Source: Elusimicrobiota bacterium
Lineage (GTDB): Bacteria; CG03; SLGR01
Reading direction: 5' to 3'
DNA: 64,000 nt
Assembly: GCA_003553445.1 (NCBI GenBank)
Contig: PWEK01000012.1
Coordinates: 1,844-65,843, forward strand
Shown: piece after piece, positions 44,310 to 61,220 of the stretch
Layout of the letters: each line of letters begins with the position of its first letter
How positions within the stretch are numbered: position 1 is the stretch's first letter
The notes under the pieces: model-generated
Database searches by the model: none
The model's input: only the letters and a program-made list of their open reading frames with translations
Told to the model about the DNA's origin: nothing
Position numbers and translations under genes: made by a program

Positions 44310-44369
44310 GAAAATAGATTCACATTTGTTGTTTACATTCTTCACGGATAGCCCGATGGAAATAATTAA

Positions 44370-45611
44370 ATGTTTTTTATAAAAATTGCTTTAAGAAACA
44401 TAATGCGAAACCGGAAAAGGACACTGCTTACATCCGGTGTTATAGCAGCCGCAGTCTTTGTATTTCTCTCACTTGACTCTCACCTGGCCAGCATGGATGA
44501 AATGGCATATGACAACATAATTGATTTTGAAACCGCCCACATACAGATCACAACTTCTCAATACTGGGAGGAAAAAGACGACCTCCCGTTAAAAAAGCTT
44601 TTATCTCATAACCGCGAACTTCAATCAGCAATTGAACAAACAAGCGATTTCCTTGCCTCATCAATACGGCTGGATTTCCAGGCCCGTCTTAACGACGGAA
44701 GGGAAGAACTTCCGGTTACTGCCCGGGCGATTGAGGAAGAAAGTTTCCGCGGCATTATGAAAATAAATGATTATATTATCCAGGGATCCTTTTTCAAACC
44801 GGGAGAAAAAAAGGCTCTCCTTGGAAAAGAGCTGGCTGAAGATATTAACCTTACAGAAGGAGATTACTTCACTCTGGTTTTCAGAACGAAAGACAATTTT
44901 TTTAACACACTTGAACTTCAGGTAAAGGGCCTCTTTCATTCTCCAAACCCGGATATAAATAAGAATATTGTTTTTCTTCCACTGGAGACAGCGCAAGAGG
45001 CCCTTAATGCGCATGGAGAGATAAGCCATCTGATGATAAGACTGAAGGAAAAGAAAAACACCGAAAAAGCAGCAGGGTTTCTTAAAAATAAACTTGCCGA
45101 ATTCCAGAATTCCTTTGCAGTCGTTCCCTGGTATGAACTTGAAGCTGTGGGGGTCAGCGAAGCAAAAAACATGGGTAATCAGCTTATTCTAACAATAATA
45201 CTTCTTATAGCGGCAATAGGGATAATAAACTCGGTTATTCTTTCCGCCCTTGAACGGATGCACGAAACCGGCATGATGAAAGCAATGGGGGTTACAGAAA
45301 AAAGCATTGTCTTTATATACATTATCGAATCAGCCGGAATAGCTATTTTAGGGATATTCTTCGGCTCTCTGGCTGCCTCCGGCGCAATAACCTACCTTTC
45401 TAAATACGGCATTGATTATTCGTTTCTCTGGGGTGAACTCGGCCGGTTCGGCATCCCTATAATAGGCCCGATATACGGGGTCTGGGTTCCTGAGTCTTTT
45501 TTATTTATCTCCATTTTCTGCATTATTGTCGCTGTTTCAGCCAGCCTTCCGCCCTCTATATGGGCTGCGCGCAAAGACGCCGTTGAAACAATACACAGAA
45601 AGAAGGCATAA
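44370..45611 (+). CDS. ABC transporter permease (LolC/E, MacB/FtsX-like)
   Basis: IALRNIMRNRKRTLLT, large periplasmic domain, ERMHETGMMKAMG, 4-TM topology. Confidence 0.9.
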   Translation: MFFIKIALRNIMRNRKRTLLTSGVIAAAVFVFLSLDSHLASMDEMAYDNIIDFETAHIQITTSQYWEEKDDLPLKKLLSHNRELQSAIEQTSDFLASSIRLDFQARLNDGREELPVTARAIEEESFRGIMKINDYIIQGSFFKPGEKKALLGKELAEDINLTEGDYFTLVFRTKDNFFNTLELQVKGLFHSPNPDINKNIVFLPLETAQEALNAHGEISHLMIRLKEKKNTEKAAGFLKNKLAEFQNSFAVVPWYELEAVGVSEAKNMGNQLILTIILLIAAIGIINSVILSALERMHETGMMKAMGVTEKSIVFIYIIESAGIAILGIFFGSLAASGAITYLSKYGIDYSFLWGELGRFGIPIIGPIYGVWVPESFLFISIFCIIVAVSASLPPSIWAARKDAVETIHRKKA

Positions 45612-46868
45612 ATGAAAGGTAATCTTAAACTGGCTCTGAAAAACATTTCCCGACACAGGCTCAGAACCGCAGTTTCCATCTCCGCAGTAATTTTATCTGT
45701 AGCAGTTGTCGTATTTGCCAGGGGGTGGGTCAACGGGGTTATCCATAATGTCAGCGAATCCTACTTTCACTACCAGACAGGTCATATAAGAATAATAGAT
45801 GAAGACTACCAGAGGCGGGAGAGGGTTCTTTCCCTGCGCTACCCGGTTACGGGTATAAACAGGGAAGACGTTTCAGAAACGGCAACAGCCTTAAAAGGGA
45901 TTGAAGGCATAGATTTAGCCCTGCCGCGCATTAAATTCGGAGCCATGGCAAGCACGGATGATGAATTAATCACACTAATGGGCTGGGGAGTGGACCCTGA
46001 AAAGGAAAAGAAATTCACCTCAATAGAAAACAAAATTGACAGAGGAAGGATGATAAGGGACGGAAAACAGGAAATTCTTATAGGATACAGGCTTTTAGAT
46101 GATCTCGGTATCACTGTGGGAGACCGTATTACGCTGATATTCAACACCGCCTACGGCTCAATCCAGGGAAGAACTTTAGTTGTAGCAGGCCGAATCAAAA
46201 GCACCCTTAAGCCTCTTAATGAAAAAATATTTTACCTGCCGCTGGACATCGCTCAGAATATGCTTCATATGGAAGGGCGGGCCACAGAAATTGTCATTGC
46301 CACCTCTTCAATAAACAAGACCGGGCAGTTAACAGCTGAAATCTCTTCTTTTCTAGCGCAAAATTATCCCGAAAACAACTATAAAGCAATACCCTGGTAT
46401 GAATCCGGAACAATGGTGGAATCGATATTTCTCATCCGATACATTTACAATTTTATTTACATTTTCATAATCGGCCTGGCATCTTTTATTGTAGTCAACA
46501 CTATGATAATGGTAGTTTCCGAAAGAACCGGTGAAATCGGAATGATGAAAGCCATGGGAATGAAGAAAAGCCAGATAATGAACCTTTTTCTTTCAGAGGC
46601 AGCCCTGAAAGGCGGCATTGGAAGTTTCGCAGGCGCTCTCCTGGGGGGAGCTATCACCTCATACTTATCGGTAAAAGGAATAGTTCTCGGAGATGAAGGC
46701 CTTCTTGGCGAAGAAATACTTATGGGGTCTGTTATTTACCCGGTTTTCTCTTATTCCAATATGATTTTCGGTTTTATCCTGGGCTCAATCATAGTAACTG
46801 CCGCAGGATATTTTCCCGCAAAAAAAGCCGCAAAACTCACCCCTACAGAAGCGCTCAGGGAATTTTAA
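45612..46868 (+). CDS. ABC transporter permease (LolC/E, MacB/FtsX-like)
   Basis: LALKNISRHRLRT, ERTGEIGMMKAMG, PAKKAAKLTPTEALR. Confidence 0.9.
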   Translation: MKGNLKLALKNISRHRLRTAVSISAVILSVAVVVFARGWVNGVIHNVSESYFHYQTGHIRIIDEDYQRRERVLSLRYPVTGINREDVSETATALKGIEGIDLALPRIKFGAMASTDDELITLMGWGVDPEKEKKFTSIENKIDRGRMIRDGKQEILIGYRLLDDLGITVGDRITLIFNTAYGSIQGRTLVVAGRIKSTLKPLNEKIFYLPLDIAQNMLHMEGRATEIVIATSSINKTGQLTAEISSFLAQNYPENNYKAIPWYESGTMVESIFLIRYIYNFIYIFIIGLASFIVVNTMIMVVSERTGEIGMMKAMGMKKSQIMNLFLSEAALKGGIGSFAGALLGGAITSYLSVKGIVLGDEGLLGEEILMGSVIYPVFSYSNMIFGFILGSIIVTAAGYFPAKKAAKLTPTEALREF

Positions 46869-47722
46869 CTTCCCAGAAGTCTTGCAAGATCAACCCTCAG
46901 TCCCATTGTAAGCGAACCGTAGTTGCCCCAGTTATCTATATTTTTATTCTTCACATCCGCTCCGCCGCCAAGAAGCCGGCCCCCGAAAACCAGTTCGGTA
47001 GAGGAAGAAACAGGCAGCCCCACAGACACCCTCAGGTCATAAATGGCGCCTTCGACCGTATCGCTTAGCAATCCGAAGGTGGAAAACCCGTCGCCCTCCA
47101 GCTGCAGCCACATCCCGCTGTTGCAGGGTTCGTAACGCAATCTGCCCTTTAAAGCAAAAACAACACCTATATCATTTTCACTTTCGTATTTATCTCCCCC
47201 CACTTCCTTGAAAGAGACCTCTGCATTTCTTATCTGAACAGAACCCCCTAAATCAGCGTTTGTTTTATCACCGGGCATTACTCTGTAGATATAACTTACG
47301 CGGTAGCCGTCAAATAGATAACGGTGGTTTACCAGTGTCCCCCGGCTGAACTGAGTTCCCCTGAAAGTAATATCCTTATCCAGATTTACAACCGTTGAAA
47401 CATCAAAAGGGGCATACAGAAATATCAGCCGGTGACGCTGTAGAAAGCCTATCTCCATGGATGCCCTCCTGGAAAGAACCAGATTTCTCTGCTGTCCGAC
47501 ATCATCGGCGCTGTATTCTGTTCCGTCTTCCCCGTACCTGCCGTCATTTTGAAAAATATAAAGAGGCCCCGTCTCGTACTCAAAAGTGGAATCATCAAAG
47601 ACAGTAAACAGGCTCTCATACTCTTGCTGCTGAAATAAACCCTGGGAGAAAACCGGCTTCGCCCCTGAAAGAAAAAACACCCCTATTACCGTTATAGCCA
47701 GAAAGTATTTAGATATTTTCAT
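46865..47722 (-). CDS. Putative outer-membrane beta-barrel protein
   Basis: Signal peptide and amphipathic beta strands (YRVSYIYR, LGGSVQIR, GRLLGGGA). Confidence 0.6.
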   Translation of the reverse strand: MKISKYFLAITVIGVFFLSGAKPVFSQGLFQQQEYESLFTVFDDSTFEYETGPLYIFQNDGRYGEDGTEYSADDVGQQRNLVLSRRASMEIGFLQRHRLIFLYAPFDVSTVVNLDKDITFRGTQFSRGTLVNHRYLFDGYRVSYIYRVMPGDKTNADLGGSVQIRNAEVSFKEVGGDKYESENDIGVVFALKGRLRYEPCNSGMWLQLEGDGFSTFGLLSDTVEGAIYDLRVSVGLPVSSSTELVFGGRLLGGGADVKNKNIDNWGNYGSLTMGLRVDLARLLGS

Positions 47723-47850
47723 ATATTTCTCTTGATTACATAAACAACAAATAAGATTATATTTCTTTTTTCACAACATTGTCAAATAAAAAATATCCTT
47801 TTAACCAAAGCTTCACATACGCTTATTTATTAATATAATATAATAAATAA

Positions 47851-48540
47851 ATGAATGAACAAAGAAAAGAAATACCTTTTATAATAACCATATCCTATCT
47901 GGCCGCTTTTCTAATAATACGCCTGGGTGTATACATAGCCGGTTCGGCAGAAAGTGAATTCGCCCAGGCCGCAAAGGCGGGGATCATGCCGGATGCGTCA
48001 TTCTACATCGGAAGCAACATTATACTCTTCGGATACCACATACATCATTTTTATTTCGGCGTTCTACTAATGGGGGTAGCCGGCTGGCTATCCCTTACAG
48101 CCAGCAGGCGATTCTCCGTAAAGCAGCTTGCGGTTATTTACGGCGCGGGCCTCGGTCTCTTTTTTGACGAGATAGGGCTTCTACTTACCTGGGGGGATTA
48201 CTACAGCAGCCTTTCCTATCTTTTAAGCCTTCTTCTGGCAGGAATATTTCTAAACATTATCTTTTTCAGCGGTTTCTGGGAAAGCGTAAAGGAGAATCTC
48301 TCATCATCCCGCCCGCGCACCATCGTAAGCAATATGCTGGTAAAACATACTACATTTATTAAATTTGCCGATTTCATAAGCGAAAAGACCGGCAAAACCG
48401 AAAAAACAAGCCTCATATTCACAGGATTGCTATACTTAGTTATAGCGGCTATAATAGTTGCAGTGCCCCAGACGCTAAGATACTGGGTTTCGCTTATATT
48501 CATCATACAGGGAATAGATTATTTCATAAAGTTTTTTTAG
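47851..48540 (+). CDS. Conserved hypothetical membrane protein (HIHH...GxxxDE) with a C-terminal DUF3096-like hairpin
   Basis: GYHIHHFYFG, YGAGLGLFFDEIG, multiple TM helices. Confidence 0.7.
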   Translation: MNEQRKEIPFIITISYLAAFLIIRLGVYIAGSAESEFAQAAKAGIMPDASFYIGSNIILFGYHIHHFYFGVLLMGVAGWLSLTASRRFSVKQLAVIYGAGLGLFFDEIGLLLTWGDYYSSLSYLLSLLLAGIFLNIIFFSGFWESVKENLSSSRPRTIVSNMLVKHTTFIKFADFISEKTGKTEKTSLIFTGLLYLVIAAIIVAVPQTLRYWVSLIFIIQGIDYFIKFF

Positions 48541-48559
48541 TAACCAAGGGGAGAGGACA

Positions 48560-48754
48560 ATGAAAAAGCATGAAAGGTTCAGTTTTTTATTTACGGGCGC
48601 CGCTTATGCAGCAGCGGGAATACTTATTCTGCTCAGGCCAAAGTTCCTTTACTACTGGATAGCCGGCATTTTTTTCATACAGGGCATTGTATCCATAGTA
48701 AGGGCTTTCACGGATTCAGAAGATAAAAAAGCAAAGGCAGGAGAAAAAGCATGA
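48560..48754 (+). CDS. Small DUF3096-like membrane protein
   Basis: AAGILILLRPKFLYYWIAGIFFIQGI, with GAGAGGA SD. Confidence 0.7.
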   Translation: MKKHERFSFLFTGAAYAAAGILILLRPKFLYYWIAGIFFIQGIVSIVRAFTDSEDKKAKAGEKA

Positions 48755-49167
48755 ATAAAAATATTCTCATATCCATAATAACGGTTATCATAATAGCCGC
48801 CGCTGTAATTGCCGCGTTAAAGTTAATTGATGCGCCACCGACCCCTGAAGAGTTAAAGGAAGAAGCCGCCGAAGAAGCCCAAAGCTGGATTGAAAACAAT
48901 TCCCCCACTTACAAATTTGATGGCATGAACCTTGAACTGACTGAAATAACCGAAGTCGACAACGGCAAATTTATAGCAGTCTTTGAGTTTGACTCCCGCC
49001 AGGCGGGATACGGGGACAGAACCGGGCAGATGCTTGCGCAGGTCATCACGCCTCACGAGATTGTTATCTCTATAGAAACTGCCCGGGAGACCGGAGAATG
49101 GAAAATAACAAGCGCTGTAACAGACGGCGTATATGACGAAAAAGCCGCTGAACGACTTGACGAATAA
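48751..49167 (+). CDS. Hypothetical membrane-anchored secreted protein
   Basis: N-terminal TM helix and motif-like SPTYKFDG...FDSRQAGYGDRTGQMLAQVITPH...AVTDGVYDE. ATGA overlap with the previous gene. Confidence 0.7.
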   Translation: MNKNILISIITVIIIAAAVIAALKLIDAPPTPEELKEEAAEEAQSWIENNSPTYKFDGMNLELTEITEVDNGKFIAVFEFDSRQAGYGDRTGQMLAQVITPHEIVISIETARETGEWKITSAVTDGVYDEKAAERLDE

Positions 49168-49307
49168 AAAAGTATGTGAATAAAACTTTGCAAACAGAAA
49201 ATCTAATTGTAAAATAAGGATATAGAAAAAAAGCATTTAAAAACAACGCGGTTTTCAGCCGCTTAAAAGAATATATAGGAAAACAAAGTCTTTAAAGGAG
49301 GCTCTTT

Positions 49308-50882
49308 ATGAAGAAAAGTTTGATTATTGCAGCAGTTTTTATGCTGTCTTTTACTGCAATCTTAAAAGCACAGCAGGTATCGGGAGTATCAAGGAGAATG
49401 CAGGGGATAAACCCTCAACTTGTAGGAGTGGTATCGGATGAGTATTCCGACTTCATGCTGATAAACACAGCCAACATCCTTGACATTGACGGCTACAGGG
49501 TTTATACGCAGCTTTCCAATCTTGGAATAGAAGGCAGCGACACAGCCCTTTCGGGAGATGCCGCAGACAACGACTTTCTGCTGGGAGGAGTAATGCCGAT
49601 GGAGTTCGGCAAGCTGGGAGGCTTTTTAATTAACCATATAGGAAGAGCAGATGCACCCATATATTACTATGACCCATCTGAAGGAAATATTCTTGACAGC
49701 GGACATTCTGGGGAATTTGAAACCATAGTAAAAAATGGTATAGATACGGAAGAATCTGGAGAAGCATATTTAAATGAAAACGAAATAATTGTAGATGCTC
49801 TTCTTGGCATGAAAAGACTTGATTTTGGACATCTTGGATTTCGACTCAGCTACAAACAATTACTAGAAGATGGTCTCAGCTCAAAATATTCTTTCACGTC
49901 TAGAGATGAAGAAGGATCTCTTCTGTCAGACATAGATGACGAAAATGAGGCAAAAAGAAAAAACACAAATATAACTGTAACTCCTTCCTTTCGCACATTG
50001 ATTGATGAAACAGTGATAGGCGCTATCTTGGGTGTTTCGCTTGTAACAGAATTGGACACAGATGAAAGGATCTCTTCATTTAGAGCATCCGCAGACAACG
50101 AAAATTACGAAGATTACTATGAACATAACACTATCATAGATAGCGAAACAGAACTGAGCGGATTGGGTATAAATATTGGAGGCGGCTTGCTACATCCCCT
50201 AACAGAGAACATCAATCTACGAGGATTTGCGACCCTTGGAATAACGAACCTATCTGGAGATGAAGCAGAATATTTTGAAGAAGAAATGATTCAAGGAACC
50301 ACAGATCCGGAAATTGTAAAATACTCAGAATTGTCAAAACAAGAAATAGATGAAAACATAATGGATATTTCTATCATATCGGGAATAGAAAAACAAATAT
50401 CTGAGAAACTCATGTTGGGAGCTGGAATTCATTTCCACCGTAATACAAAAACAACAGAAATGGAAGAAAAACGAACGAAAACCGATGATGACGGAGTTAT
50501 AACATATGATACAATGACCACAGATATGGAAAGAAAGATATCTATAACTAACTTTTCCTTACCTATCGGACTCGAATGGCAGGCAACTGAATGGATGAAA
50601 GCAAGAATGGGCGCTTCATACGTGATAAATTCATATAGCCGAACGGATAAATATGAAACCACATTTTATGAAGATAATACTGAAGAAGCGGAAAAAGAAG
50701 ATGACACAATTAAAGCAGAAGAAACCAGACCGGTGATTGTTACAGACAACGTAGCATTCTTTTCCGGTCTCGGCTTTAGCGTAACAGAAAACCTGGATAT
50801 TGATGTAACCGGCATGTTTGATAACGGAGCAAGCATCCTGGAGCTGGGGAACTGGGAGCTTTCGGCCACTTTGAAGTTCTAA
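49308..50882 (+). CDS. Acidic outer-membrane beta-barrel (porin/FadL-like) protein
   Basis: Signal peptide, AAGGAGG SD, strands LPIGLEWQATEWMKARMGA and FSGLGFSVTENLDID, terminal LSATLKF. Confidence 0.75.
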   Translation: MKKSLIIAAVFMLSFTAILKAQQVSGVSRRMQGINPQLVGVVSDEYSDFMLINTANILDIDGYRVYTQLSNLGIEGSDTALSGDAADNDFLLGGVMPMEFGKLGGFLINHIGRADAPIYYYDPSEGNILDSGHSGEFETIVKNGIDTEESGEAYLNENEIIVDALLGMKRLDFGHLGFRLSYKQLLEDGLSSKYSFTSRDEEGSLLSDIDDENEAKRKNTNITVTPSFRTLIDETVIGAILGVSLVTELDTDERISSFRASADNENYEDYYEHNTIIDSETELSGLGINIGGGLLHPLTENINLRGFATLGITNLSGDEAEYFEEEMIQGTTDPEIVKYSELSKQEIDENIMDISIISGIEKQISEKLMLGAGIHFHRNTKTTEMEEKRTKTDDDGVITYDTMTTDMERKISITNFSLPIGLEWQATEWMKARMGASYVINSYSRTDKYETTFYEDNTEEAEKEDDTIKAEETRPVIVTDNVAFFSGLGFSVTENLDIDVTGMFDNGASILELGNWELSATLKF

Positions 50883-50899
50883 AAGATTAACTCACCATT

Positions 50900-50938
50900 A
50901 AACTCCCTCTTCGGCATAAGCCGGAGGGGGAGTTTTTC
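50900..50938 (+). terminator. Intrinsic terminator
   Basis: AAACTCCCTCTTCGGC-ataa-GCCGGAGGGGGAGTTTTT. Confidence 0.85.
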
Positions 50939-50960
50939 TTTAAGTTCAGGTAGATAAAAA

Positions 50961-50988
50961 TTGACCGGCGTTTGAAATAACATATAAT
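50961..50988 (+). promoter_or_regulatory. Sigma70-type promoter of the kamA operon
   Basis: TTGACC, 16 nt, TATAAT. Confidence 0.7.
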
Positions 50989-51016
50989 AAAACAATGAAA
51001 AGAAAAGGAAAAAAAC

Positions 51017-52312
51017 ATGTGCGCTTATGAATTGACCGAAGATTCAATGTACAATGACGGGAATAAGCCCCCGGAGTGGAAAGATTATAAGTGGCACCTG
51101 AAGCACAGTATAACTACTGTTGAGACCTTTGAGAAGGCAACGGGAATTAAGCTTAAGAATAAACAGGAGATAAAAAAAACCCTGGAAAAATTTCCCCTTT
51201 CAATAACCCCCTATTATCTTTCCCTGGTAGATAAGGAAAATTATGAAGTGGACCCTATATATAAACAGGCCTTCCCCGATCCCAGGGAGCTCAGGGTTGC
51301 CCGAAACGACATGTCCGATCCGCTTCATGAAGATTCTGACAGCGTGGTTGAGGGAATAACACACCGCTATCCCGACAGGGTTTTATTTACGGTCAGCAAC
51401 AAATGCTCCATGTACTGCAGGCACTGCACAAGAAAAAGGAAGGTCGGAGACAGGGACTATATTCCTTCAAAGAAAACCATTGAAAAGGGAATAAGATATA
51501 TTGAAAAAACCCCCGAAGTCAGGGACGTGCTTCTATCCGGGGGAGATCCCCTTCTCCTATCCGATGAATACCTGGACTGGATACTTTCACGGATAAAAAA
51601 GATACCTCACGTTGAGGTTATAAGAATCGGAACAAGAATCCCGGCAGTCCTTCCTTTCCGTATAACCGATGAACTTGTAACAGTATTGAAAAAACATCAA
51701 CCACTGTGGATAAACACTCATTTTAATCACCCGAGAGAACTGACGGATTCTGCAAAGGAGGTTCTCAACAGGCTTGCAGATGCCGGCTTTCCGCTCGGAA
51801 ACCAGGCGGTGCTCCTGGCAGGGGTAAATGACTGTCCGAGGATAATAAAAAGCCTTATGCAGAAACTTGTTCAAAACAGGGTGCGGCCCTACTACCTCTA
51901 TCAGTGCGACCTCAGCAAGGGGCTTTCTCATTTCAGAACCACAATCAGTAAGGGAATAGAAATAATAGAACATATGAGAGGCCACACCAGCGGATTTGCA
52001 GTCCCCACCTATGTGATAGACGCACCCGGAGGTGGCGGTAAAATCCCGGTTGGTCCTAACTACCTGATATCGTGGGCAACAAATAAGGTTGTACTAAGAA
52101 ATTATGAAGGGGTGATTACAACTTATAAAGAACCCGATTCCTACGAGCCTGTATTCTGCGATAGAAAATGCAGAGACTGCAAACTTCAACTAAACCTTGA
52201 AAAGGCTAAGGAAGAAGAAACTCTTGGCCTGGTTAAGCTCCTTTCTCACTATGATGAAACTTACTCGCTCACCCCGCAAGACAACACCAGAAGTAAAAGA
52301 AACAAGGGGTAA
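51017..52312 (+). CDS. kamA: Lysine 2,3-aminomutase (AblA-type)
   Basis: [21 protein letters not shown] (radical SAM), [34 protein letters not shown] (PLP lysine), RNYEG, Zn tail CDRKCRDC. Confidence 0.95.
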
Positions 52313-52314
52313 AA

Positions 52315-53676
52315 ATCAATATCTACAGCACAAAATCTGAATACCCGTCACGGATACTTGTAGTGGGAAGCTGGGCAAAAGAACAGGTTACTGCAGAGAA
52401 CATTAAGAAAAACCCCGGAATAAAGGTTTACTCTTATATGGATACTGAAAACCCGGGTATCATATCGCTCGTTGACGGATATAAAAAAGGAAGCCTTACT
52501 GATATCGAATCAATTACCGAATACGCAAAGCGCATTTCATGTGAACTGGCAGTAATAACAACCGCATCCCCGCTTTCAAAAGGCCTGGTGGATAAACTTG
52601 AGCATGAGGGTATCGCGGCATTCGGACCCTGCAAAGAAGCTTCCAAACTTGAATCAAATAAAGCCTATGCAAGAAACTTAATGAAAAAGCATAACATTGA
52701 CGGACTTCCTGAATTCGTCTCTTTCCAGAGCAAAGACAAGGCAGTTAAATACGCAGAAGAAATGAACTGGCAGGTAGCCGTAAAACCCGCAGGGCTCACA
52801 GAGGGTCTCGGAGTAAAGGTTGCAGGAGAGCAGCTTAGCGGCAGGAAGGAAATAATCAATTACATAGAAGAAATCCTAAGTGATAAAAAAGGCTGCAGCT
52901 CGACTGCGGTTATAGAGGAAAAAATTCAAGGCGAAGAGTTTGTCATACAGTCTTTTGTAAACGACCTGACAGTAATCCCTGTCAGAGCCGTGCAGGATTT
53001 TAAAAAGCTTCTCCCCGGAGACAGGGGTCCAAATACCGCCAGCATGGGCTCCTATTCCACAAAAAACAGGCTTCTGCCTTTTTTAAGCAAAGAGGATTAT
53101 GAAAAAGGCGTAGATATCATAAAAAATACTGTCAGAGCCTTCAGGAAAGAAACGGGAAAACTCTGCAGAGGCATTTTATACGGGCAATTTATGCTCACTG
53201 ACAGGGGGGTAAAGCTGATTGAGTATAACTTCCGCCCGGGAGACCCCGAATGGATGAATACCGTTTCAGTACTGAATCAAAATATTGCCGAAATCATCAC
53301 CGATATTATGAAAAATAAAACCCCGGTTATCACAATGCAGCCCCATGCAACCGTATGCAAATATATAGTCCCCGAAGGATACCCTCAAAAGCTCTATCAG
53401 AAACTTGATATAGAGATTCCGGAAGAAGAGATAAGAAATTCAGGAGTAGACATATACTACAGCTGCGGTAGAAGCGACTCCGGGAGACTTATACCCGGCA
53501 GCGAAAGGGGGGTGGCATTCATCGCAAAAGATGAAACTGTTCCCCTGGCCTGCAAAAAAGTAGATTCTGCCATATCAAAAGTAAAAGGAAACTTTTTTTA
53601 CAGAAAAGATATAGGAACCGAAAAGATGATTAGAAAAAAATCAACACTGAAAAAGCATTACGGAGGAAAAAATTAA
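52315..53676 (+). CDS. PurD (GAR synthetase)-like ATP-grasp amide ligase, divergent; start upstream of 52363, probably ATC 52315
   Basis: PurD fold motifs RILVVGS, NPGI, FGP..ASKLESNK, VKPAGLTEGLGV, IEEKIQGEE, QDFKK...GPNT..MGSYS, EYNFRPGDPE, VCKYIVPEGYP, FYRKDIG. The first strand RILVV lies before the GTG used by the ORF track. Confidence 0.85.
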   Translation: MNIYSTKSEYPSRILVVGSWAKEQVTAENIKKNPGIKVYSYMDTENPGIISLVDGYKKGSLTDIESITEYAKRISCELAVITTASPLSKGLVDKLEHEGIAAFGPCKEASKLESNKAYARNLMKKHNIDGLPEFVSFQSKDKAVKYAEEMNWQVAVKPAGLTEGLGVKVAGEQLSGRKEIINYIEEILSDKKGCSSTAVIEEKIQGEEFVIQSFVNDLTVIPVRAVQDFKKLLPGDRGPNTASMGSYSTKNRLLPFLSKEDYEKGVDIIKNTVRAFRKETGKLCRGILYGQFMLTDRGVKLIEYNFRPGDPEWMNTVSVLNQNIAEIITDIMKNKTPVITMQPHATVCKYIVPEGYPQKLYQKLDIEIPEEEIRNSGVDIYYSCGRSDSGRLIPGSERGVAFIAKDETVPLACKKVDSAISKVKGNFFYRKDIGTEKMIRKKSTLKKHYGGKN

Positions 53677-54154
53677 GCTAAGAGTAAGCAGAGAAGATGA
53701 CTTCACACGCATTCACAGTTTCGTAGAAAACTGTGAAACCCTGGAAAACTACCCACTGCATGTTTATAAAATCATACTCAGATATTTTTCTCAAACCTGC
53801 ATTATTGCCGAAGATGACGGTCGGTTAATAGGTTTTGTAACCGGTTTTTTCTCTCAAAATCAGAAGAATAAATTTTTTATCTGGCAGATCGGGGTTCACC
53901 CTGAAACAAGGGGAAAAGGAATAGCCTCATTAATGCTGGATAAACTTCAAAAAATTCTACAGAAAAAACAATGCTCCCTTATAGAGCTAACAGTATCTCC
54001 CAAGAACACTCCTTCCCGAAAGCTTTTTGAAAAAAACGGGTTTAAAAACAAAAGCGGCGTAACCGGCAGCATTACAAAAATAGATGAATTAATATGCGCA
54101 AAAGATTATTACGGACCCGGGCGAGACTTCATTATATTCCACAAAAAAATATAA
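53672..54154 (+). CDS. EctA-like GNAT acetyltransferase (160 aa; ATT start; the ORF track shows only the last 73 aa)
   Basis: Manual translation: IKLRVSREDDFTRIHSFVENCETLENYPLHVYKIILRYFSQTCIIAEDDGRLIGFVTGF...FFIWQIGVHPETRGKGIASLML...IELTVSPKNTPSRKLFEKNGF. GGAGG lies 5 nt before the ATT, and an in-frame TGA is at 53648. Confidence 0.85.
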   Translation: MKLRVSREDDFTRIHSFVENCETLENYPLHVYKIILRYFSQTCIIAEDDGRLIGFVTGFFSQNQKNKFFIWQIGVHPETRGKGIASLMLDKLQKILQKKQCSLIELTVSPKNTPSRKLFEKNGFKNKSGVTGSITKIDELICAKDYYGPGRDFIIFHKKI

Positions 54155-54168
54155 ACTGCCTGACTTAA

Positions 54169-55086
54169 TTAAAGAAATACAAAGACTAAATACAGATAAA
54201 CACAGAACACGACAATCAGCCCTCCCCCTTCCCACCTGCTTATCATCTTTGAGGTCACTATCACCGGCAGAAGTATAAGACTTAACAAAACTAACGTCGG
54301 ACCGTAAAATAGCACCTCACCGCGGGTAAAAAACGTTGCCCGGATAAATGCTGCTCCCCCTGCCACAAAAAGTATATTAAATATATTTGAACCTATAACA
54401 GTACCCAGGCTTATACGGGGTTTTCCGCATAAGCCCCCTGCAATAACAACTGAAAGTTCAGGAAGAGAAGTCCCCGCAGCAACAACGCTTAATCCTACAA
54501 CAGCCTCAGATAAACCAAACGTTTCGGCAAAACCCACAGCACTATTTATAATAAATTCAGCACCAACTAAAAGCAATGCAACACCGACGATGCTTGCAAG
54601 GAGGTTCAAGCCGACAGGTCCCCGGTTCCCCCCATTTTCCTTCCCTTTCCTCTTAATAAGCGAATAAAGATAGCCCACGCCCAATGCTACCATGATTCCT
54701 CCTTCCGGACGGCTTATAAAGCCGTTTATTGAAAAGACAAAGAAAACAAGAGATGAAAATAAAAGAACCCTGTAGTCTTTTTTTATAATTGCCTCATCTA
54801 CATAAATCACACTCAAAAGTGCTCCAATGCCGAGAACCACTGCCGTATTTGCGGCATTTGATCCCACCGCATTTCCTATGGATATAGCATGGTTTCCTTT
54901 AAATGATGCCGTCCAGGATACCGCTATTTCCGGAAGAGAGGTCCCTATACCTCCCCCTATTAACCCAACTATGAGAGACGATACCCGCAGGTTTTCTGCA
55001 AGCTCGGAGCTTTTTCTGACAAAAAGTTCTGCTCCGTAAACAAGCATTAGTATACCTAAGGTAAATTTCAAATATTCTACAAACAA
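54169..55086 (-). CDS. Ca2+/Na+ antiporter (YrbG/CaCA family); start probably TTG 55086
   Basis: Two alpha repeats GTSLPEI...GNAVGSN and GTSLPEL...GTVIGSNIFN. Confidence 0.92.
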   Translation of the reverse strand: MFVEYLKFTLGILMLVYGAELFVRKSSELAENLRVSSLIVGLIGGGIGTSLPEIAVSWTASFKGNHAISIGNAVGSNAANTAVVLGIGALLSVIYVDEAIIKKDYRVLLFSSLVFFVFSINGFISRPEGGIMVALGVGYLYSLIKRKGKENGGNRGPVGLNLLASIVGVALLLVGAEFIINSAVGFAETFGLSEAVVGLSVVAAGTSLPELSVVIAGGLCGKPRISLGTVIGSNIFNILFVAGGAAFIRATFFTRGEVLFYGPTLVLLSLILLPVIVTSKMISRWEGGGLIVVFCVYLYLVFVFL

Positions 55087-55233
55087 ACCACTGCGCCCCT
55101 TTTTGTTTCTACTTTTCCAGTAATCGCAAGAATTAACATTATAATAAATAAGAAGATTCTTTCCACTCAATCATAATCTCCGGAATTGCTCATTTTAATG
55201 CTTCAGCTTTGTTTTCGTTTTTCCATCAGCTAT

Positions 55234-55262
55234 TTGACAGTCCATATTTTATATTCTAAAAT
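55234..55262 (+). promoter_or_regulatory. Sigma70-type promoter of nfeD-floA
   Basis: TTGACA, 17 nt, TAAAAT. The ATG follows after 6 nt with no SD. Confidence 0.7.
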
Positions 55263-55268
55263 TTTGCT

Positions 55269-56738
55269 ATGAAATCTATAAAGACCATACTGGGCCTTTC
55301 TTTAATATTACTGGCAGTCATCTCTTCCAGGCAAGTCACACACTCCGGCTCAGAAAATTCACGCCCTGTATACCACATCCCGATAACCTCGGAGATAAAC
55401 TATGGGGAATACGGATTTGTTCGCAGAGGAATTGAAGACGCCCTCCAGGACAGCGCGGCGCTTATAATACTTCAAATCGACACTTACGGCGGTCGGGTAG
55501 ACGCCTGCATCGATATTGTAGGAGCCATTGACTCCGCCGGGGAGGTTCCCGTTTACGCATTTGTGGAAGATAAAGCCTGGTCCGCCGGCGCCCTTATTGC
55601 GCTGGCGTGCGAAAAAATTTACATGAAAGACGGCAGCACCATTGGTTCAGCAACGCCCGTGACGGGAGAGGGAGAAGAACTGAGCGAAAAATATGTTTCA
55701 GCCATAAGGGCTAAATTCCTGGCTACAGCCCAAAAAAACGGCCACCCACAGAACATTGCGGCTGCAATGGTAGATCAGAACATAAAGGTCTCAGAGGTTT
55801 TAATTGACGGTGAAAAAAGATACCTCACACCCGAACAGATTGAAAAGGCGGCTGAAAATAAAGATGTTACAATTAGCGAAACGGTAAGCGACAAGGGTCA
55901 GCTCCTTAATCTGACTGCCAGAGATGCCGCCAGATTCACCCTTTCGGAAGGAACTAAAAACAATATTGAATCAATACTGGAAAAAGAAGGCATGAGGGAA
56001 TCACCTGTGGTAAAGATCACAAAAAACTGGGCAGAACACCTTGCCTCATTCTTAACCGGAGGCATGGTAAGCTCCCTGCTGATGACCCTGGGTTTCTTGT
56101 TTCTCTTTCTGGAATTTGAAGAGCCCGGACTGGGAGTCCCGGGCATTTTGGGAATATGCTGTTTCGGCCTTTTCTTTTTCGGCAGGCATATTGTGTACCT
56201 GGCTGATTGGATACATGTTCTGCTGTTTGCAATAGGGGTTTTACTGATTCTTCTGGAAATATTTGTCATCCCCGATTTCGGCCTCTCGGGAATCGCCGGA
56301 GGAGCGCTGGTGCTCCTGTCGGTTTACTTTGCATTAAGCCCCTTTAGTGTTCCCAGGCAACCCTGGGATTTTCAGACATTCCAGATAAATCTTCTTATGA
56401 TTATGAGCAGCCTGATTGTAAGCATAATAGGCAGCCTTGTAATCATTCATAATATGGACAAGATACCCGGGTTAAACAAAGTAATGCATGCGGGCAATCT
56501 TGTAACCCCGAAAAGCTCCTGCAGCGGCGTTCAAAACCAGAAACAGCCTGAAAAAGCCAATATCAAAATAGGAACCGAAGGCACCGCAGTAACTGACCTG
56601 AGGCCGGTAGGAAGAATCAGATTCGGGGAAAGAATATTTGACGGCGTTTCTCAGCAGGGATTTGTTGAGAAAGGCACAAAGGTTAAAGTGATAGAAACAG
56701 GAGACAACAGAATCTTAGTAGAAAAAAAGGAGACATGA
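55269..56738 (+). CDS. nfeD: NfeD-family membrane serine protease (YqeZ-like)
   Basis: [29 protein letters not shown] region, and C-terminal OB fold (TDLRPVG). Confidence 0.92.
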
Positions 56739-57751
56739 TGGAAAACACAGGAATTCAGGCATTACTTATTGTTTTAGGTTTTATTTTACTGGTCATAGCA
56801 ATAATCGTACTTTCATTTTTCGGACTCTGGTTTCAGGCCCGACTGTCAGGCGTAAAGATAAGCATAGTTAATTTAGTCGGCATGAAGCTGAGAAAGGTTG
56901 CCCCCACTGTTATAGTGCAGGCAATGATAATGTCAACAAAGGCAGGGCTGCAGCTTTCACCCTCGCAGCTTGAAGCCCATTACCTCGCTGGAGGAAACGT
57001 AACGGCAGTTGTTAAGGCGTTGATAGCAGCAAACAAGGCGGGAATACTTCTTAATTTTTCAAAAGCAACCGCCATCGATCTTGCCGGGAGAAACGTCCTG
57101 GAAGCCGTCCGCACAAGCGTAAACCCGAAAGTCATTGACTGTCCCAGCCCGGATTCAGGTAAAACGAAAGTAGAAGCCGTCGCAGGAGACGGAATTCAGC
57201 TCAAGGCAAAAGCCAGGGTAACGGTAAGAGCCAACATTGACCAGCTTATAGGAGGGGCGACTGAAGAAACAATAATCGCCCGTGTCGGAGAGGGAGTAGT
57301 CACCACCATAGGCTCTTCAAAATCCCATAAAAACGTTCTTGAAAATCCCGACATCATCACCAAGCGGGTTCTTGAAAAAGGCCTTGATTCGGGAACCGCC
57401 TTTGAAATACTTTCAATTGATATCGCTGATATAGACGTTGGAAGAAATATCGGCTCCGAACTTCAGGCAGCCCAGGCAGAAGCCGACAAGAAAGTTGCCC
57501 AGGCAAACGCCGAGAAAAGAAGAGCCATGGCCGTCGCCCAGGAACAGGAAATGAAAGCCAGGATAGAAGAAAACCGGGCGAAGGTCGTCCTTGCAGAAAG
57601 TAAAATACCCGAGGCTATAGCCGAAGCCTTCAAACAGGGAAATCTGGGAATAATGGATTATTACAAAATGAATAACATAAAATCAGATACAGACCTCAGG
57701 GATTCCATTTCCAAATGGACTGAAAAAAAAGATGATGACGGGGAAAAATAG
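56735..57751 (+). CDS. floA: Flotillin-like protein FloA (YqfA)
   Basis: [77 protein letters not shown]. Confidence 0.95.
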
Positions 57752-57754
57752 TAT

Positions 57755-58120
57755 ATGGAATATCTAGTACTTATAGCCTTTGTAATAGTTGTAATAGGCC
57801 GGCTATCCAAATCTGATTTTTTTAAAGAGCTAATGGATCATCTTAAAGAGGACTTTTTCCCCGAAGATGAGAGTAGTCGAAGCCAGCGTGACAGAATCCG
57901 CACGAAAAGAATAAACCAGTTAAAAACGGCTGGCGGAAAAAGAAAGATAAAAAGGGTAAAAAAAACCCCACCGAAACCTGAAAAAAAAGTTAATCACGAA
58001 GACATAAAGGCTGTCCCAGAAAAGAAAAAAGAAACACCTAAATCCACGTCCAGGGAAAAAGACATTCTCACTGCCATAGTCTGTTATGAGCTTCTCAGAA
58101 AACCAAAATCAAAAAATTAA
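57755..58120 (+). CDS. Hypothetical protein (YqfB-position gene)
   Basis: N-terminal TM helix, basic linker, C-terminal AIVCYELLRKPKS, third gene of the nfeD-floA operon. Confidence 0.7.
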   Translation: MEYLVLIAFVIVVIGRLSKSDFFKELMDHLKEDFFPEDESSRSQRDRIRTKRINQLKTAGGKRKIKRVKKTPPKPEKKVNHEDIKAVPEKKKETPKSTSREKDILTAIVCYELLRKPKSKN

Positions 58121-58134
58121 CTTTACATACCTCT

Positions 58135-58178
58135 AAAAAAATACTGCCCGGAACTTAAAACAAGTAACCGGGCAGTAT
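58135..58178 (-). terminator. Intrinsic terminator between the convergent floA and opuA operons
   Basis: ATACTGCCCGG...CCGGGCAGTAT, with an A-run at 58135-58140 (U-tract on the minus strand). Confidence 0.8.
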
Positions 58179-58199
58179 GAACGTGACTGGTTTGTCAGC

Positions 58200-59393
58200 T
58201 TAGAAGTTTATGGCATACTCCAGAGCTGCAAAATCCGAGCCTTCATCGGCAAACTCTGAATCCGGCATGAACCTGCTGTATGTCACAAAGACGCTGCTTG
58301 CGTCATTTATTGTATAAGCAAGTTTCAAACCGACTTCATCACCGATATCATCACCACTGACCTCTTCAGCGAGCATATAGTAATGAGCCATCAGGTTCAG
58401 GTCTTCACGGGGGTTAATGCTGAATCCCGCACCTATAGATTCCAGATTGCTTATATCAGCAAAAGTTACAGCTGAACCAAACGCATCCAGGTAATAATCA
58501 TACCAGAAAGTATCTACGAAATACCCGTAGGTGACTGAAGAGCCGAATCCTTCATTATCATCGGTCTCCGGATCATCTCCGGTAGCCAGAAAATAATCCG
58601 CTTTCAGCGACAGCCCGTGAAAATCCGGCACATCATAGTTCAGCGCTGCGTATAGCAATGAAGCGTCATAATCATTCTCATTATGGTCATTTCCCATCTG
58701 CATGCTGTATTCAAGATAGTGGCGGAAGTTTTGAAAACCCCCGTCAGCAATCAGTCCCGCAAAATTCCTCTCATCGCTATCTTCTTGTCCGAAATCATCC
58801 GTGTAATCAACAATATAGTATCCTGTCAGGTCAGTTTCAGGAAGAGAATAAAAAGCAGTCAAACCGGACATATGCCCTTTGCTGTGTTCATCTTTTCTTA
58901 CCCAGTCTGCATCAGCTAACCTGTAATTGAATGCTTCCAGACTCAGGTCATCATATGCGTAAGATGCCTTTACTCCGTCAAGGCCTGCCCAGTCAGAAGT
59001 CAGGACAAATCCGCGACCCAGAAAAATATTCTGGCGCCCCACTGTAAGAGCCATGTCATCTACAAGAAAATCAGATATTTTCGCATATCCTGTCTGCAGT
59101 TTAAAAGACCTTCCATTTGTAGCCGGTCTCCATCCGGTATCGCCCATAGTGTTCTCAAACTCAGCGACGATATTAACATAGATGTCATCGGTGACATTCC
59201 CGTCCATACCCAGATGAATACGATTTCTCATGAACTCATAAAAATCCCCGGCATCATCTTCTCCCTCAAGATTATTCATCATCTGCCAGCGCAATCGATA
59301 CTGCCCTGAAAAATTGAGGTCTTCCATATCGAATGCATAACCTGACGCAGCCAGCATTAAAACCATCATTAATGAAATGATTTTACTCTTCAT
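58200..59393 (-). CDS. Outer-membrane porin (alginate-export-family-like), acidic
   Basis: Signal peptide, FSGQYRLRW, RIHLG, LTVGRQ....GRGFVL, GLDGVK, ATGDD, IGDEV, terminal INF. Confidence 0.75.
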   Translation of the reverse strand: MKSKIISLMMVLMLAASGYAFDMEDLNFSGQYRLRWQMMNNLEGEDDAGDFYEFMRNRIHLGMDGNVTDDIYVNIVAEFENTMGDTGWRPATNGRSFKLQTGYAKISDFLVDDMALTVGRQNIFLGRGFVLTSDWAGLDGVKASYAYDDLSLEAFNYRLADADWVRKDEHSKGHMSGLTAFYSLPETDLTGYYIVDYTDDFGQEDSDERNFAGLIADGGFQNFRHYLEYSMQMGNDHNENDYDASLLYAALNYDVPDFHGLSLKADYFLATGDDPETDDNEGFGSSVTYGYFVDTFWYDYYLDAFGSAVTFADISNLESIGAGFSINPREDLNLMAHYYMLAEEVSGDDIGDEVGLKLAYTINDASSVFVTYSRFMPDSEFADEGSDFAALEYAINF

Positions 59394-59442
59394 TCATTTC
59401 CTCCTTTTCCTTTACAATCTTCTTTCAACCCAAAAGCAGTAT

Positions 59443-60297
59443 TTACTGCAGCCACTGATCTACCCTGTTCGGGTTTTCTTCTATCCATCTTACGGCATTT
59501 TCATAAGGGTCTGCGCCCTCTTCTTCATTCCATGCCATAATTTCATTTAATTCGGCACTGCTCATATAGAAATTATCAAGAAAGCTGTATGCTTCCGGGG
59601 AATCTACACTCAAGTTCTGTCGAGTGATGGTGTGAATATCTTCATCTTCGCCGTATACCATCTTCGGATCTTCAAGTTCCTTAAGATCCCATTCACCATA
59701 CTTCCAATGAGGTGTCCATCCTGTTACAACGATCCATTCATTGTTATCAACTGCATCAGCAAGCGCAGCAGCCATTGTTGCGCCACTTCCTTCAACAAGA
59801 GTGAAATCACCAAGGCCATATTCTTCTATAGCCTCTTCCGTAGCGCCCATTATCCCTGCTCCGGGATCAATACCGATGATTTCATAGTCGAACCTGTCCG
59901 CGTTTTCCGGCAGCTCTTCAATTGAGTCAATATCAACATATGTCGGAACTGTTAATCCTATAGACGCTCCTTCAAGATTAGCTCCCAGGTCGTCTATATC
60001 AGCTTCCGTTTCCTCATAATACTCAGCATGTGTTACCGGAAGCCATGCACAGGTAATCGCATCCACGTCCCCTGCTCCCAGGGCTGTCCACATTGCTGCA
60101 GCAGATACAGCTACGGTATCTACATCATAATTCATTCTCTCCTGTAGTACAGCTTTTGCCAGATTGGTGCTTGCTGTAGCGCAAGCCCATTCTACATATG
60201 CCAGTTCAATCGTTTCATCTGGTGTTCTGGCGCAGCTCAATACTGCAAGTGCCAAAACTCCAACAAGAAAACCATTAATTTTTTTTCTTAGGTTCAT
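59443..60297 (-). CDS. opuAC: Glycine betaine ABC transporter substrate-binding lipoprotein
   Basis: Lipobox VLSC, AYVEW, AWLPVTH, IIGIDPGAG, VTGWTPHW, LEDPK. Confidence 0.93.
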   Translation of the reverse strand: MNLRKKINGFLVGVLALAVLSCARTPDETIELAYVEWACATASTNLAKAVLQERMNYDVDTVAVSAAAMWTALGAGDVDAITCAWLPVTHAEYYEETEADIDDLGANLEGASIGLTVPTYVDIDSIEELPENADRFDYEIIGIDPGAGIMGATEEAIEEYGLGDFTLVEGSGATMAAALADAVDNNEWIVVTGWTPHWKYGEWDLKELEDPKMVYGEDEDIHTITRQNLSVDSPEAYSFLDNFYMSSAELNEIMAWNEEEGADPYENAVRWIEENPNRVDQWLQ

Positions 60298-60389
60298 CTA
60301 AACCTCCTTTTTTCCTTCAACCTTCAATACCCTGCTCTTTATCTTTTATTTATATGTTTAAATTGAAATTTTAGTGTGTGAGCACAGGA

Positions 60390-61220
60390 TTAACCCTTAT
60401 TCTTTTTTATTATGTTCTGAGTGATCCTGTCAAATATCATAGCTATTATAACAATTGCTATGCCTGCTTCAAACCCCATCCCCATCCTTAATCTCTGGAT
60501 AGCTCTCCATACAACACCTCCGAGACCGCCTGCCCCTATCATAGCGGCAATAACCACCATTGACAATGCAAGCATTATTGTCTGATTTATTCCTCCCATT
60601 ATAGTCGGCGCTGCAAGGGGAAGCTGAACATTTATCAGCTTCTGCATTTTTGTAGCCCCGAAAGAATCGGATGCCTCCATTAATTCTTCGGGAAGCTGCC
60701 TTATCCCCAGAGCAGTGAATCTTATAGATGGAGGAATGGAGAATATAACCGTCGCAAATACCGCGGCAACCTTGCCCAGGCCGAAAAACGGTATTGCCGG
60801 GATAAGGTATACAAAAGCCGGCATTGTCTGCATAAAATCAAGCACAGGCGTTATCAGCTTATAAAATTTATTGTTTAATGCGGCAATTATGCCCAGGGGC
60901 AGTCCTACAATAACCGCTATTACTGTTGAGGTAATAACAAGCGCAAATGTCGAAACAGTAGGATCCCAAAGACCGAAATTCCATATTAATCCTAAGCCAA
61001 GCATTGATAGAATACTTCCCTTTATCGAAATAATCCTCCAGGCAATTACACCGATTATTAAGATCAAGAGCCATGGGGGGAAGAACTCCAGGACATTAAT
61101 CAAAAGAGAAATCATTGTATCGATAATTTCTGAAAAGCCCCTGGTGACCGCTGAGAACCTCAGCGTTAAGAAATCAATTCCCGAATCTATCCATTCTCCA
61201 AGCGGTAATCTATACATCAA
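60390..61220 (-). CDS. opuAB: Glycine betaine ABC transporter permease
   Basis: PVLDFMQTMPAFVYLIP, EASDSFGAT, INQTIMLALSMVVIAAMIGAGGLG. Confidence 0.95.
   Translation of the reverse strand: MMYRLPLGEWIDSGIDFLTLRFSAVTRGFSEIIDTMISLLINVLEFFPPWLLILIIGVIAWRIISIKGSILSMLGLGLIWNFGLWDPTVSTFALVITSTVIAVIVGLPLGIIAALNNKFYKLITPVLDFMQTMPAFVYLIPAIPFFGLGKVAAVFATVIFSIPPSIRFTALGIRQLPEELMEASDSFGATKMQKLINVQLPLAAPTIMGGINQTIMLALSMVVIAAMIGAGGLGGVVWRAIQRLRMGMGFEAGIAIVIIAMIFDRITQNIIKKNKG

Follow-up and report, generated by a model that had tools for sequence, protein, structure and literature searches.

The window analysed here, a 64,000-nt stretch of contig PWEK01000012.1 from an Elusimicrobiota bacterium whose positions are used throughout, contains at 50961–54154 a cassette of three genes encoding a lysine 2,3-aminomutase (KamA/AblA), an ATP-grasp ligase with the fold of PurD and an acetyltransferase of the GNAT family that is related to EctA (Table 1). 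The cassette probably makes an undescribed, net-neutral N-acetylated β-lysine amide, possibly a glycyl amide, which is predicted to be accumulated as a compatible solute. On its 5′ side the unit is bounded by the intrinsic terminator of an upstream gene encoding an acidic exported protein; the stem of this hairpin (50900–50935) folds at −30.1 kcal/mol with a z-score of −6.5, and none of 200 shuffled sequences equalled it. The promoter match that follows is the best of nine promoter-like sites in the region. On the 3′ side an antiporter gene converges 14 nt past the stop codon of the GNAT gene, and a scan of this interval for a hairpin found none. An earlier sequence-only reading of this DNA had described the unit with its upstream terminator, its promoter and a convergent Na+/Ca2+ antiporter, and all three boundaries were recovered in the present analysis.

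Table 1. Features of the cassette and its surroundings (window positions, except in the last row, where locus handles precede the positions).
Feature	Position	Strand	Remarks
kamA/ablA, lysine 2,3-aminomutase, 431 aa, ATG start	51017–52312	+	TIGR03820, 738 bits
PurD-paralogue ATP-grasp ligase, 453 aa if ATC 52315 is the start	52315–53676	+	GARS_N, GARS_A, GARS_C
EctA-like GNAT acetyltransferase, 160 aa when read from ATT 53672	53672–54154	+	Best family EctA
Intrinsic terminator ending the upstream gene and marking the 5′ limit of the unit	50900–50945	+	16-bp stem, 4-nt loop, T run
Sigma-70-like promoter match, TTGACC-16-TATAAT	50961–50988	+	11/12 consensus match, sequence match only
Convergent calcium/sodium antiporter (context, outside the operon)	54169–55170	−	TIGR00367, 194 bits; cutoff 179.65
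ProX/ProW/ProV (OpuA-type) betaine/choline ABC uptake (context)	59443–62412	−	ATPase TIGR01186, 416 bits; cutoff 327
Second KamA-family proteins of other loci	L014:7839–9656, L016:7817–9631, L022:7810–9624, L029:7810–9624, L046:7823–9670

The product of kamA scores 738.3 bits on the AblA equivalog model TIGR03820 (cutoff 525.4), falls far below the cutoffs for the glutamate and arginine aminomutases and for EpmB, and matches the structure of the lysine 2,3-aminomutase from C. subterminale (2A5H) with 490 bits. In the alignment with 2A5H the CxxxCxxC motif, the lysine of GGGGK and the residues aligned with Asp293 and Asp330, which bind the ε-amine of lysine in the C. subterminale enzyme, are all retained, and the score on the AblA model bears out the lysine 2,3-aminomutase assigned from the sequence alone. 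A role in the modification of elongation factor P (EF-P) was rejected, since the EpmB model gave 238 bits against its cutoff of 369. In five Methanoperedens-type loci a further KamA-family radical-SAM protein of 604–615 residues is encoded 3′ of the GNAT, forming a second aminomutase within the same cluster; it carries an N-terminal extension of ∼190 residues and matches TIGR00238 with 316 bits, and the best match among the equivalogs, that to glutamate 2,3-aminomutase, reaches just 262 bits against a cutoff of 650.

The second gene product carries the GARS_N, GARS_A and GARS_C domains of Pfam and scores 325.3 bits on the purD model TIGR00877, 37 bits over the 288-bit cutoff. The host genome (2.22 Mb, 97% complete) also holds the separate canonical purD for which the sequence-only reading had advised a search, with 497 bits at C8:16120–17361. 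Both copies are likewise present in four of five other carrier genomes, where the canonical protein scores 415–483 bits against 291–325 bits for the paralogue, and a canonical PurD was thus found in five of the six carrier genomes checked, the host included. In a quick LG+G4 tree of 43 paralogues and five canonical PurDs of the same genomes, the two groups are split with a support of 100 in the Shimodaira–Hasegawa-like approximate likelihood-ratio test (SH-aLRT); archaeal and bacterial members intermingle within the paralogue clade, the metagenome-assembled genome (MAG) of an Elusimicrobia member pairing with that of a Methanocellaceae member at a support of 95. No pur genes occur in the flanks of the cassette, in which the ligase adjoins kamA and the GNAT gene, and the long relatives with a fusion to PurF, PurN, PurH or PurM domains share just 32–40% identity with the ligase. 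Judged from these comparisons of sequence, the ligase is a PurD paralogue and not the purine-pathway copy of the genome. A protein atlas gave only clusters with the automatic name PurD. In one 1.8-Mb Elusimicrobiota genome (G013, the genome of locus L021) the paralogue was found alone, with 297 bits, barely over the purD cutoff, and without a canonical purD; automated annotation would credit this genome with PurD.

The PurD fold proposed for the ligase is supported by its three GARS domains and by an AlphaFold2 model (pLDDT 89.3), for which the top 14 structures listed by Foldseek are all PurD, with TM-scores of up to 0.85 (2YW2); the solved PurDs are 25–30% identical to the ligase, and no solved structure is closer by sequence. 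Residues were mapped through HMMER alignments to Aquifex 2YW2 and human 2QK4 together with a family alignment of 24 members, and the roles of PurD residues in contacts to ATP, Mg and glycine were taken from the available excerpts of PMC8880213 and PMC2978367. Aquifex residues E100, K103, K143, E185, E192, D212, K214, R287 and E292 are invariant in the family alignment, and D290, E283 and N285 (Aquifex numbering) and the C-domain arginine (human R385) are also retained, such that every charged residue given in these excerpts for contact with ATP, Mg or glycine is invariant. Because the glycine-binding residues reported there are all kept, glycine may still be the donor, as the sequence-only reading had supposed on condition that the donor site of PurD was preserved. 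The loops of the N-domain have changed: GGREH of PurD is replaced by W20-A21-K22-E23-Q24, with W20 and K22 invariant in 24 of 24 members and the tryptophan taking the place of a glycine, and the helix cap, a sulfate-binding site in crystals of PurD, has changed from VGPEAPL to ITTAxPL. The B-loop reads GLTEGL in place of GLAAGK, DHK is replaced by DFK and GPNTGGMGAY by GPNTASMGSY, and the protein thus lacks the canonical N-domain loop and B-loop motifs of PurD. With the charged residues kept and the N-domain loops altered, the chemistry of the ATP-grasp fold and the site for a small amino acid look intact, and the pocket looks rebuilt on the side facing phosphoribosylamine in PurD.

For the third gene product the best family is EctA (TIGR02406), at 102 bits against a cutoff of 120.6, and AblB gives no match, in agreement with its earlier description as EctA-like rather than AblB-like. 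EctA is the L-2,4-diaminobutyrate Nγ-acetyltransferase of ectoine synthesis. All 27 members of the GNAT family examined match EctA, none reaches the cutoff (the 102 bits of the window protein being the highest score) and none matches AblB (TIGR03827). The closest solved proteins are the EctA structures 6SJY, 6SK1 and 3D3S, and outside the range of the EctA-like match the family has a C-terminal tail of ∼35 residues (AVKDYYxPGRHF…). Against the Ngg model TIGR03103 the window protein scores 26 bits (cutoff 569). A profile search with the GNAT alignment against 1.84 billion representatives returned 32 proteins at E ≤ 1e-30, of which the long matches (551–625 aa) align at their C-terminus, as fusions to a PurD-like protein would, and three proteins of 809–819 aa align to profile positions 1–124 alone, like EctA-type matches. 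No alternative partner of the GNAT is visible among the 32 matches listed, the domains of which were left unscanned, and a search for longer GNAT homologues, which was a weak one with few shared words, gave no match. A complex prediction for ligase and GNAT gave a score of 0.00, under the mark, which is evidence neither way.

The association of the three genes extends far beyond the window. A pattern scan over one genome per species gave 50 loci, 45 with downstream sequence and five cut by contig ends. In all 45 evaluable loci, drawn from more than 12 bacterial and archaeal phyla, the GNAT either comes directly 3′ of the PurD-like gene or forms a fusion with it; the two were never seen apart, and in at least 21 of these loci they form one open frame of ∼610–630 aa. 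Of the 48 loci that could be judged for kamA, 33 have an AblA-type gene on the upstream side, 51–77% identical to that of the window, and another has a divergent KamA there. Fourteen genomes have no kamA beside the cassette, and ten of them were searched for AblA: seven contain a copy above the cutoff elsewhere, one has a piece truncated at a contig edge (391 bits), one gave a match of 509 bits against the cutoff of 525, and one gave none. Fusions of KamA to the ligase occur in L007 (906 open codons) and in P0124 (890 aa, from a cluster of 36 member sequences). According to their record titles, the bacterial carriers belong to Omnitrophota, Elusimicrobiota, Atribacterota, Calditrichaceae, KSB1, Cytophagia, several Acidobacteriota, Planctomycetia, Anaerolineales, Gemmatimonadota and Bacillota, and the archaeal carriers to Methanoperedens, Methanocellaceae, Thermoplasmatales, a Euryarchaeota single-cell genome and Promethearchaeia. 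The synteny of kamA, PurD-like gene and GNAT, the conservation of which had been put forward as a check of the sequence-only reading, is thus strong and is reinforced by the gene fusions, and the three genes are a real, conserved and uncharacterised pathway. In a Gemmatimonadota MAG (L056:6001–7067) ligase residues 12–173 alone are matched and the GNAT begins ∼100 nt later, which may reflect an internal deletion or an assembly problem.

The window copy itself departs from all others in its start codons. The GNAT frame is open over 53651–54154 and contains none of ATG, GTG and TTG ahead of codon 88 (of 160), the first canonical start being ATG 53933. The ligase frame is open over 52297–53676 and has its first canonical start at GTG 52363, with none 5′ of the first β-strand (residues 13–17, RILVV; model pLDDT 89); the database gene call P0004 starts at this GTG and so loses the strand. 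ATC 52315 lies 5 nt past AAGGGG and 2 nt past the kamA stop, and ATT 53672 lies 5 nt past GGAGG, overlaps the ligase stop by 1 base and occupies exactly position −68 from WQIGV, where the homologues have ATG. All 45 other loci with the ligase motif have an ATG, GTG or TTG 5′ of the strand, 3–105 codons away (in L007, the KamA fusion, 457). A separate GNAT gene was seen by the motif scan in 18 loci, the window included, and 15 of the other 17 have their first in-frame start 68–77 codons before WQIGV, the distances in L008 and L051 being 95 and 126 codons. The window is therefore the sole one of 46 loci without a canonical ligase start and of 18 separate-GNAT loci without one at the GNAT N-terminus; this anomaly of both downstream genes is new here and is unique among the loci compared. 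A soda-lake metagenome contig from another study is identical to the window across the ATT; the ATC is covered solely by runs that are possibly the source of the assembly, the independent runs not covering 51899–52375. A rough genome-wide scan found ∼10 other candidates for a noncanonical start behind a Shine–Dalgarno sequence among ∼1400 coding-looking frames.

Besides early decay, which is taken up below, two explanations for these starts may be offered from the sequence of the junctions. Translation of the downstream genes may begin by coupled near-cognate initiation at ATC and ATT (junctions 52304–52317 and 53662–53676). The ligase frame is also −1 relative to kamA across a run of four Gs at the stop codon, and the GNAT frame is +1 relative to that of the ligase, the shift falling at AAT-TAA, 4 nt past a GGAGG; recoding by −1 and +1 at the two stops, which may take place, would yield KamA–ligase and ligase–GNAT fusions like the natural ones. 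The tight coupling of the three genes described earlier therefore holds for the reading frames, which are separated by a 2-nt gap and joined by a 1-nt overlap, provided that the ATC and ATT starts or recoding are used. Likewise, the 160-residue length given to the GNAT stands if ATT 53672 is the start, but finds no canonical start codon to support it.

In the proposed pathway, the AblA-type radical-SAM aminomutase would turn L-lysine into β-lysine, a step that is well supported by homology. The PurD paralogue would use ATP to form an acyl phosphate, either on the carboxylate of an amino acid held in the conserved `glycine' site or on β-lysine, and would pass the acyl group to the amine that replaces phosphoribosylamine, most simply an amino group of β-lysine or of N-acetyl-β-lysine. 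The EctA-related GNAT, acting before or after the ligase, would acetylate one remaining amine to give a zwitterionic N-acetylated amide, for example N-acetylglycyl-β-lysine or N-glycyl-Nε-acetyl-β-lysine. By our own count six bonds lead from N6 to C1 of β-lysine, as from the amine of phosphoribosylamine to its phosphorus, so that β-lysine could stand in for the latter, and the retained C-domain arginine together with Lys22 could hold its carboxylate. The cassette would then be a variant route of β-lysine solute biosynthesis that uses a repurposed PurD. A more far-reaching version, in which the paralogue has exchanged phosphoribosylamine for β-lysine and still activates glycine, and in which N-acetyl-glycyl-β-lysine is a new class of solute spread over archaea and more than ten bacterial phyla, forms the main osmolyte route of the host and is expressed there through ATC/ATT initiation or recoding, appears doubtful as a whole.

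The cassette resembles several known systems. As in the AblA/AblB pathway to Nε-acetyl-β-lysine, which occurs in methanogens, Ca. Methanoperedens and some bacteria, AblA is the first enzyme, a GNAT would acetylate a β-lysine-derived amine, and MscS and transporter genes are neighbours; however, the GNAT of the cassette is EctA-like and has 160 residues, whereas AblB has ∼270–320, and an obligatorily coupled ATP-grasp ligase is added. With PurD (EC 6.3.4.13) the ligase shares the three-domain GARS fold, the charged residues for ATP, Mg and glycine and a score over the TIGR00877 cutoff, but it belongs to a separate clade 25–30% identical to the solved PurDs, is a second copy, has the GGREH, GPE, B-loop lysine and DHK histidine replaced, and is linked or fused to KamA and GNAT and never to pur genes. 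The motifs L(E/D)xY/NxxxxY, F(I/V)WQ(I/V)(G/A)V and IExTVSPxNxxSRxLF are common to EctA and the cassette GNAT, as are the best hidden Markov model (HMM) and structure matches, although the latter is below the EctA cutoff in 27 of 27 members, has its own ∼35-residue C-terminal tail and belongs to a host in the genome of which no EctC was found. The Ngg/AsnO pathway builds the N-acetylated dipeptide-type osmolyte N-acetylglutaminylglutamine amide (NAGGN) by means of a GNAT domain and an ATP-grasp ligase. The cassette shares this logic without homology beyond the superfamilies, its ATP-grasp enzyme being of the PurD type and its precursor being β-lysine.

Searches of the host genome gave no match to AblB (TIGR03827) and no OtsA, and the best match to Ngg (TIGR03103) had 26.3 bits against the cutoff of 569. 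EctC (PF06339) and KamD were also not found, in searches for which the control genomes were silent as well, so that the EctC search is unvalidated; ectB and ectC are absent from the flanks of the cassette in the window. The absence of ablB, ectC, kamD and other pur genes alongside the cassette, which the sequence-only reading had noted, thus extends to the genome or flanks, with the same qualification for ectC and kamD. Lysine fermentation was rejected on the missing KamD and ectoine synthesis on the missing EctC, again with silent controls. If its product is a solute, the cassette would be the only de novo organic-solute route found in the host.

The genomes fall into two classes, a division that is new here: those in which the cassette is linked to AblA and AblB is absent (the host, G012 and G013, from Asgard archaea and Elusimicrobiota), and those in which AblB is present and the ligase–GNAT pair is unlinked from AblA. 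In the unlinked genomes AblB lies 1.5–2.3 kb from AblA. In three loci (L078:3161–6757, L080:2553–6134 and L079:2821–7283) a transporter gene lies between the two, encoding a sodium:solute symporter (fused to AblB, 758 aa, in L078) or a SBP_bac_3–permease fusion with an ATP-binding cassette (ABC) ATPase, which makes them candidates for the transport of lysine or solute in the β-lysine system. Loci L026 and L045 also have an SBP_bac_3-type ABC transporter next to the cassette, and in L008, L035 and L042 the ATPase of this type of transporter is found there. Salt induction of kamA–ablB has been described (PMC11337218, available in part), where a feature of m/z 189.125 was matched to Nε-acetyl-β-lysine and downstream genes are called merely `genes of unknown function', and the available part of the main text contains no mention of purD, glycinamide or phosphoribosylamine.

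The recurrent neighbours of the cassette have an osmotic character. MscS is a neighbour in seven Methanoperedens-type loci, and weakly in one more, DUF1646 in three loci and MarR in two; Na/Ca exchangers of the same family adjoin the cassette in the window and in Methanoperedens L047, and amino-acid ABC transporters are also among the recurrent neighbours. Transporters, a MarR-type regulator and MscS are given as neighbours of ectoine genes in the accessible part of PMC13342039. The DNA of the window was found whole in two salt-lake metagenome runs, which are possibly its source, and partly, in pieces without differences, in the soda-lake runs of another study. The predicted proteome of the host has a median isoelectric point (pI) of 8.3 over 1349 open reading frames of at least 200 aa, 17% of them being below pI 5, and is therefore not of the acidic `salt-in' type; a salt- or soda-lake host with such a non-acidic proteome is a new observation. 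Acidic exported proteins together with a non-acidic cytoplasm fit a salt-out halophile, and such a host would need organic solutes and would presumably rely on the cassette and on betaine/choline uptake.

The surroundings named in the sequence-only reading as fitting a role in osmotic stress are indeed present. The OpuA system is found as a ProVWX/OpuA-type transporter, of which the binding protein and the permease score under their equivalog cutoffs (Table 1), and the acidic exported neighbours have pI values of 4.0–4.3. The latter are signal-peptide proteins at 49308–50882 and 58200–59393 and have no NCBIfam match. Just past the antiporter, at 55269–57751, an NfeD-like membrane protein (with weak matches to a ClpP/SppA-like N-domain) is coupled to a flotillin-like FloA (521 bits), which is an ordinary NfeD–flotillin pair. 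An Rfam scan of 44000–61000 at E values of up to 1 gave no riboswitch or other RNA family, and hence no Na+ riboswitch of the kind that has been reported for some ablA genes (in the excerpt available of PMC9337991).

Several observations weigh against a β-lysine-derived compatible solute as the product. The paralogue occurs in only three of 40 relatives of the host, all three of the same order and identified by their N-termini as Elusimicrobiota MAGs already among the loci; the host itself is therefore probably a member of Elusimicrobiota, and the cassette is an accessory module, moving between bacteria and archaea. The record titles of other carriers name groundwater, mine and hot-spring MAGs and freshwater archaea, and these titles show no enrichment in saline habitats. 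AblB is present together with the unlinked ligase–GNAT fusion in three of five genomes tested, and it coexists with the cassette in Methanoperedens L013, L022 and L029 in the order MscS–AblA–AblB (348 bits on TIGR03827)–ligase–GNAT, the same row lacking AblB in L014, L016, L030 and L047. Since the cassette occurs with AblB and in MAGs titled in this way, it is neither a simple replacement of AblB nor a trait confined to saline sites. The conservation of the glycine site may mirror general catalysis and not specificity for glycine. Finally, two of the three window genes have no canonical start codon, and the GNAT departs from its family at six of 33 near-invariant positions, so the window copy may be weakly expressed or decaying.

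The last point leads to a different explanation, in which the operon is decaying or nearly silent in the host, ATG having mutated to ATC and to ATT, and the cassette no longer contributes. The window is the sole locus without canonical starts (one of 46 for the ligase, one of 18 for the separate GNAT), and its deviations, at 13 of 153 near-invariant positions in the ligase besides those of the GNAT, are among the highest in the alignments. Yet neither the 453 codons of the ligase frame nor the 160 of the GNAT frame are interrupted, most substitutions in the ligase are conservative with every family-invariant residue retained, and the ATC and the ATT each stand 5 nt past a Shine–Dalgarno-like run, at or beside the preceding stop, the ATT exactly where homologues have ATG. 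Taken with the ∼10 further candidate starts of this kind in the genome and the recurrence of the same sequence, ATT included, in the soda-lake metagenome of another study, decay appears quite unlikely.

As regards the product, the module might make Nε-acetyl-β-lysine alone, with the PurD-like enzyme as an accessory that provides extra synthesis of glycinamide ribonucleotide or supplies precursors and leaves the solute unchanged. AblA is present, the three directly linked genomes (the host, G012 and G013) have no AblB, and the paralogue still passes the purD HMM cutoff; EctA, moreover, acetylates the distal amine of a diamino acid, in a chemistry close to that of AblB. We regard this explanation as very unlikely, because at least 21 of 45 loci have ligase and GNAT fused and none has them apart, the ligase is also fused to KamA, the loops by the phosphoribosylamine site are rebuilt with an invariant Trp20 in place of glycine, the ligase–GNAT pair is kept in genomes that contain AblB, and a canonical PurD is present in five of the six genomes checked. 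A β-lysine conjugate that is not a compatible solute, such as a modified polyamine, envelope component or protein, or a small secreted bioactive amide, would agree with the use of β-lysine in EF-P modification and in antibiotics such as streptothricin, with the patchy, horizontally transferred distribution of the cassette, with the many carriers that are not obviously from saline sites, and with the OmpA-like, MFS and patatin-like genes that flank some unlinked copies. Nevertheless, no genes for nonribosomal peptide synthetases, export, self-resistance, EF-P or EpmA-like proteins recur beside the cassette, where MscS, DUF1646, Na/Ca exchangers and solute transporters are found repeatedly, and the aminomutase is of the AblA type (738 bits) and not EpmB, which makes a conjugate of this kind unlikely. 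An N-acetylated β-lysine amide that serves as a compatible solute thus remains the product that we favour.

In the full-text literature no paper was found that joins an aminomutase or β-lysine with an ATP-grasp or PurD partner, and `glycyl-beta-lysine', `beta-lysylglycine' and `beta-lysine amide' had zero occurrences in the full texts searched. Non-functional `extra PurD-like' genes have been noted in two haloarchaea without an assigned function and without GARS_N (PMC3261824). As the module is small, with three genes or two fused ones, it is directly testable by heterologous expression.

If the proposed pathway is correct, it would provide a new enzyme activity for the PurD family, which we found described solely in purine synthesis, and a new β-lysine-derived solute would join the short list of microbial osmolytes. 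It would also expose a systematic annotation error, in that pipelines label the cassette ligase PurD; since these ligases pass the purD model, they would inflate calls of `purine prototrophy' in MAGs, and the Elusimicrobiota genome G013, which gave the paralogue alone, would be an example of such a miscall. The findings would further bear on the salt adaptation of poorly known anaerobes, namely Omnitrophota, Elusimicrobiota, Atribacterota, Calditrichota and Asgard archaea, as well as on methane-oxidising Methanoperedens, in which Nε-acetyl-β-lysine alone was sought.

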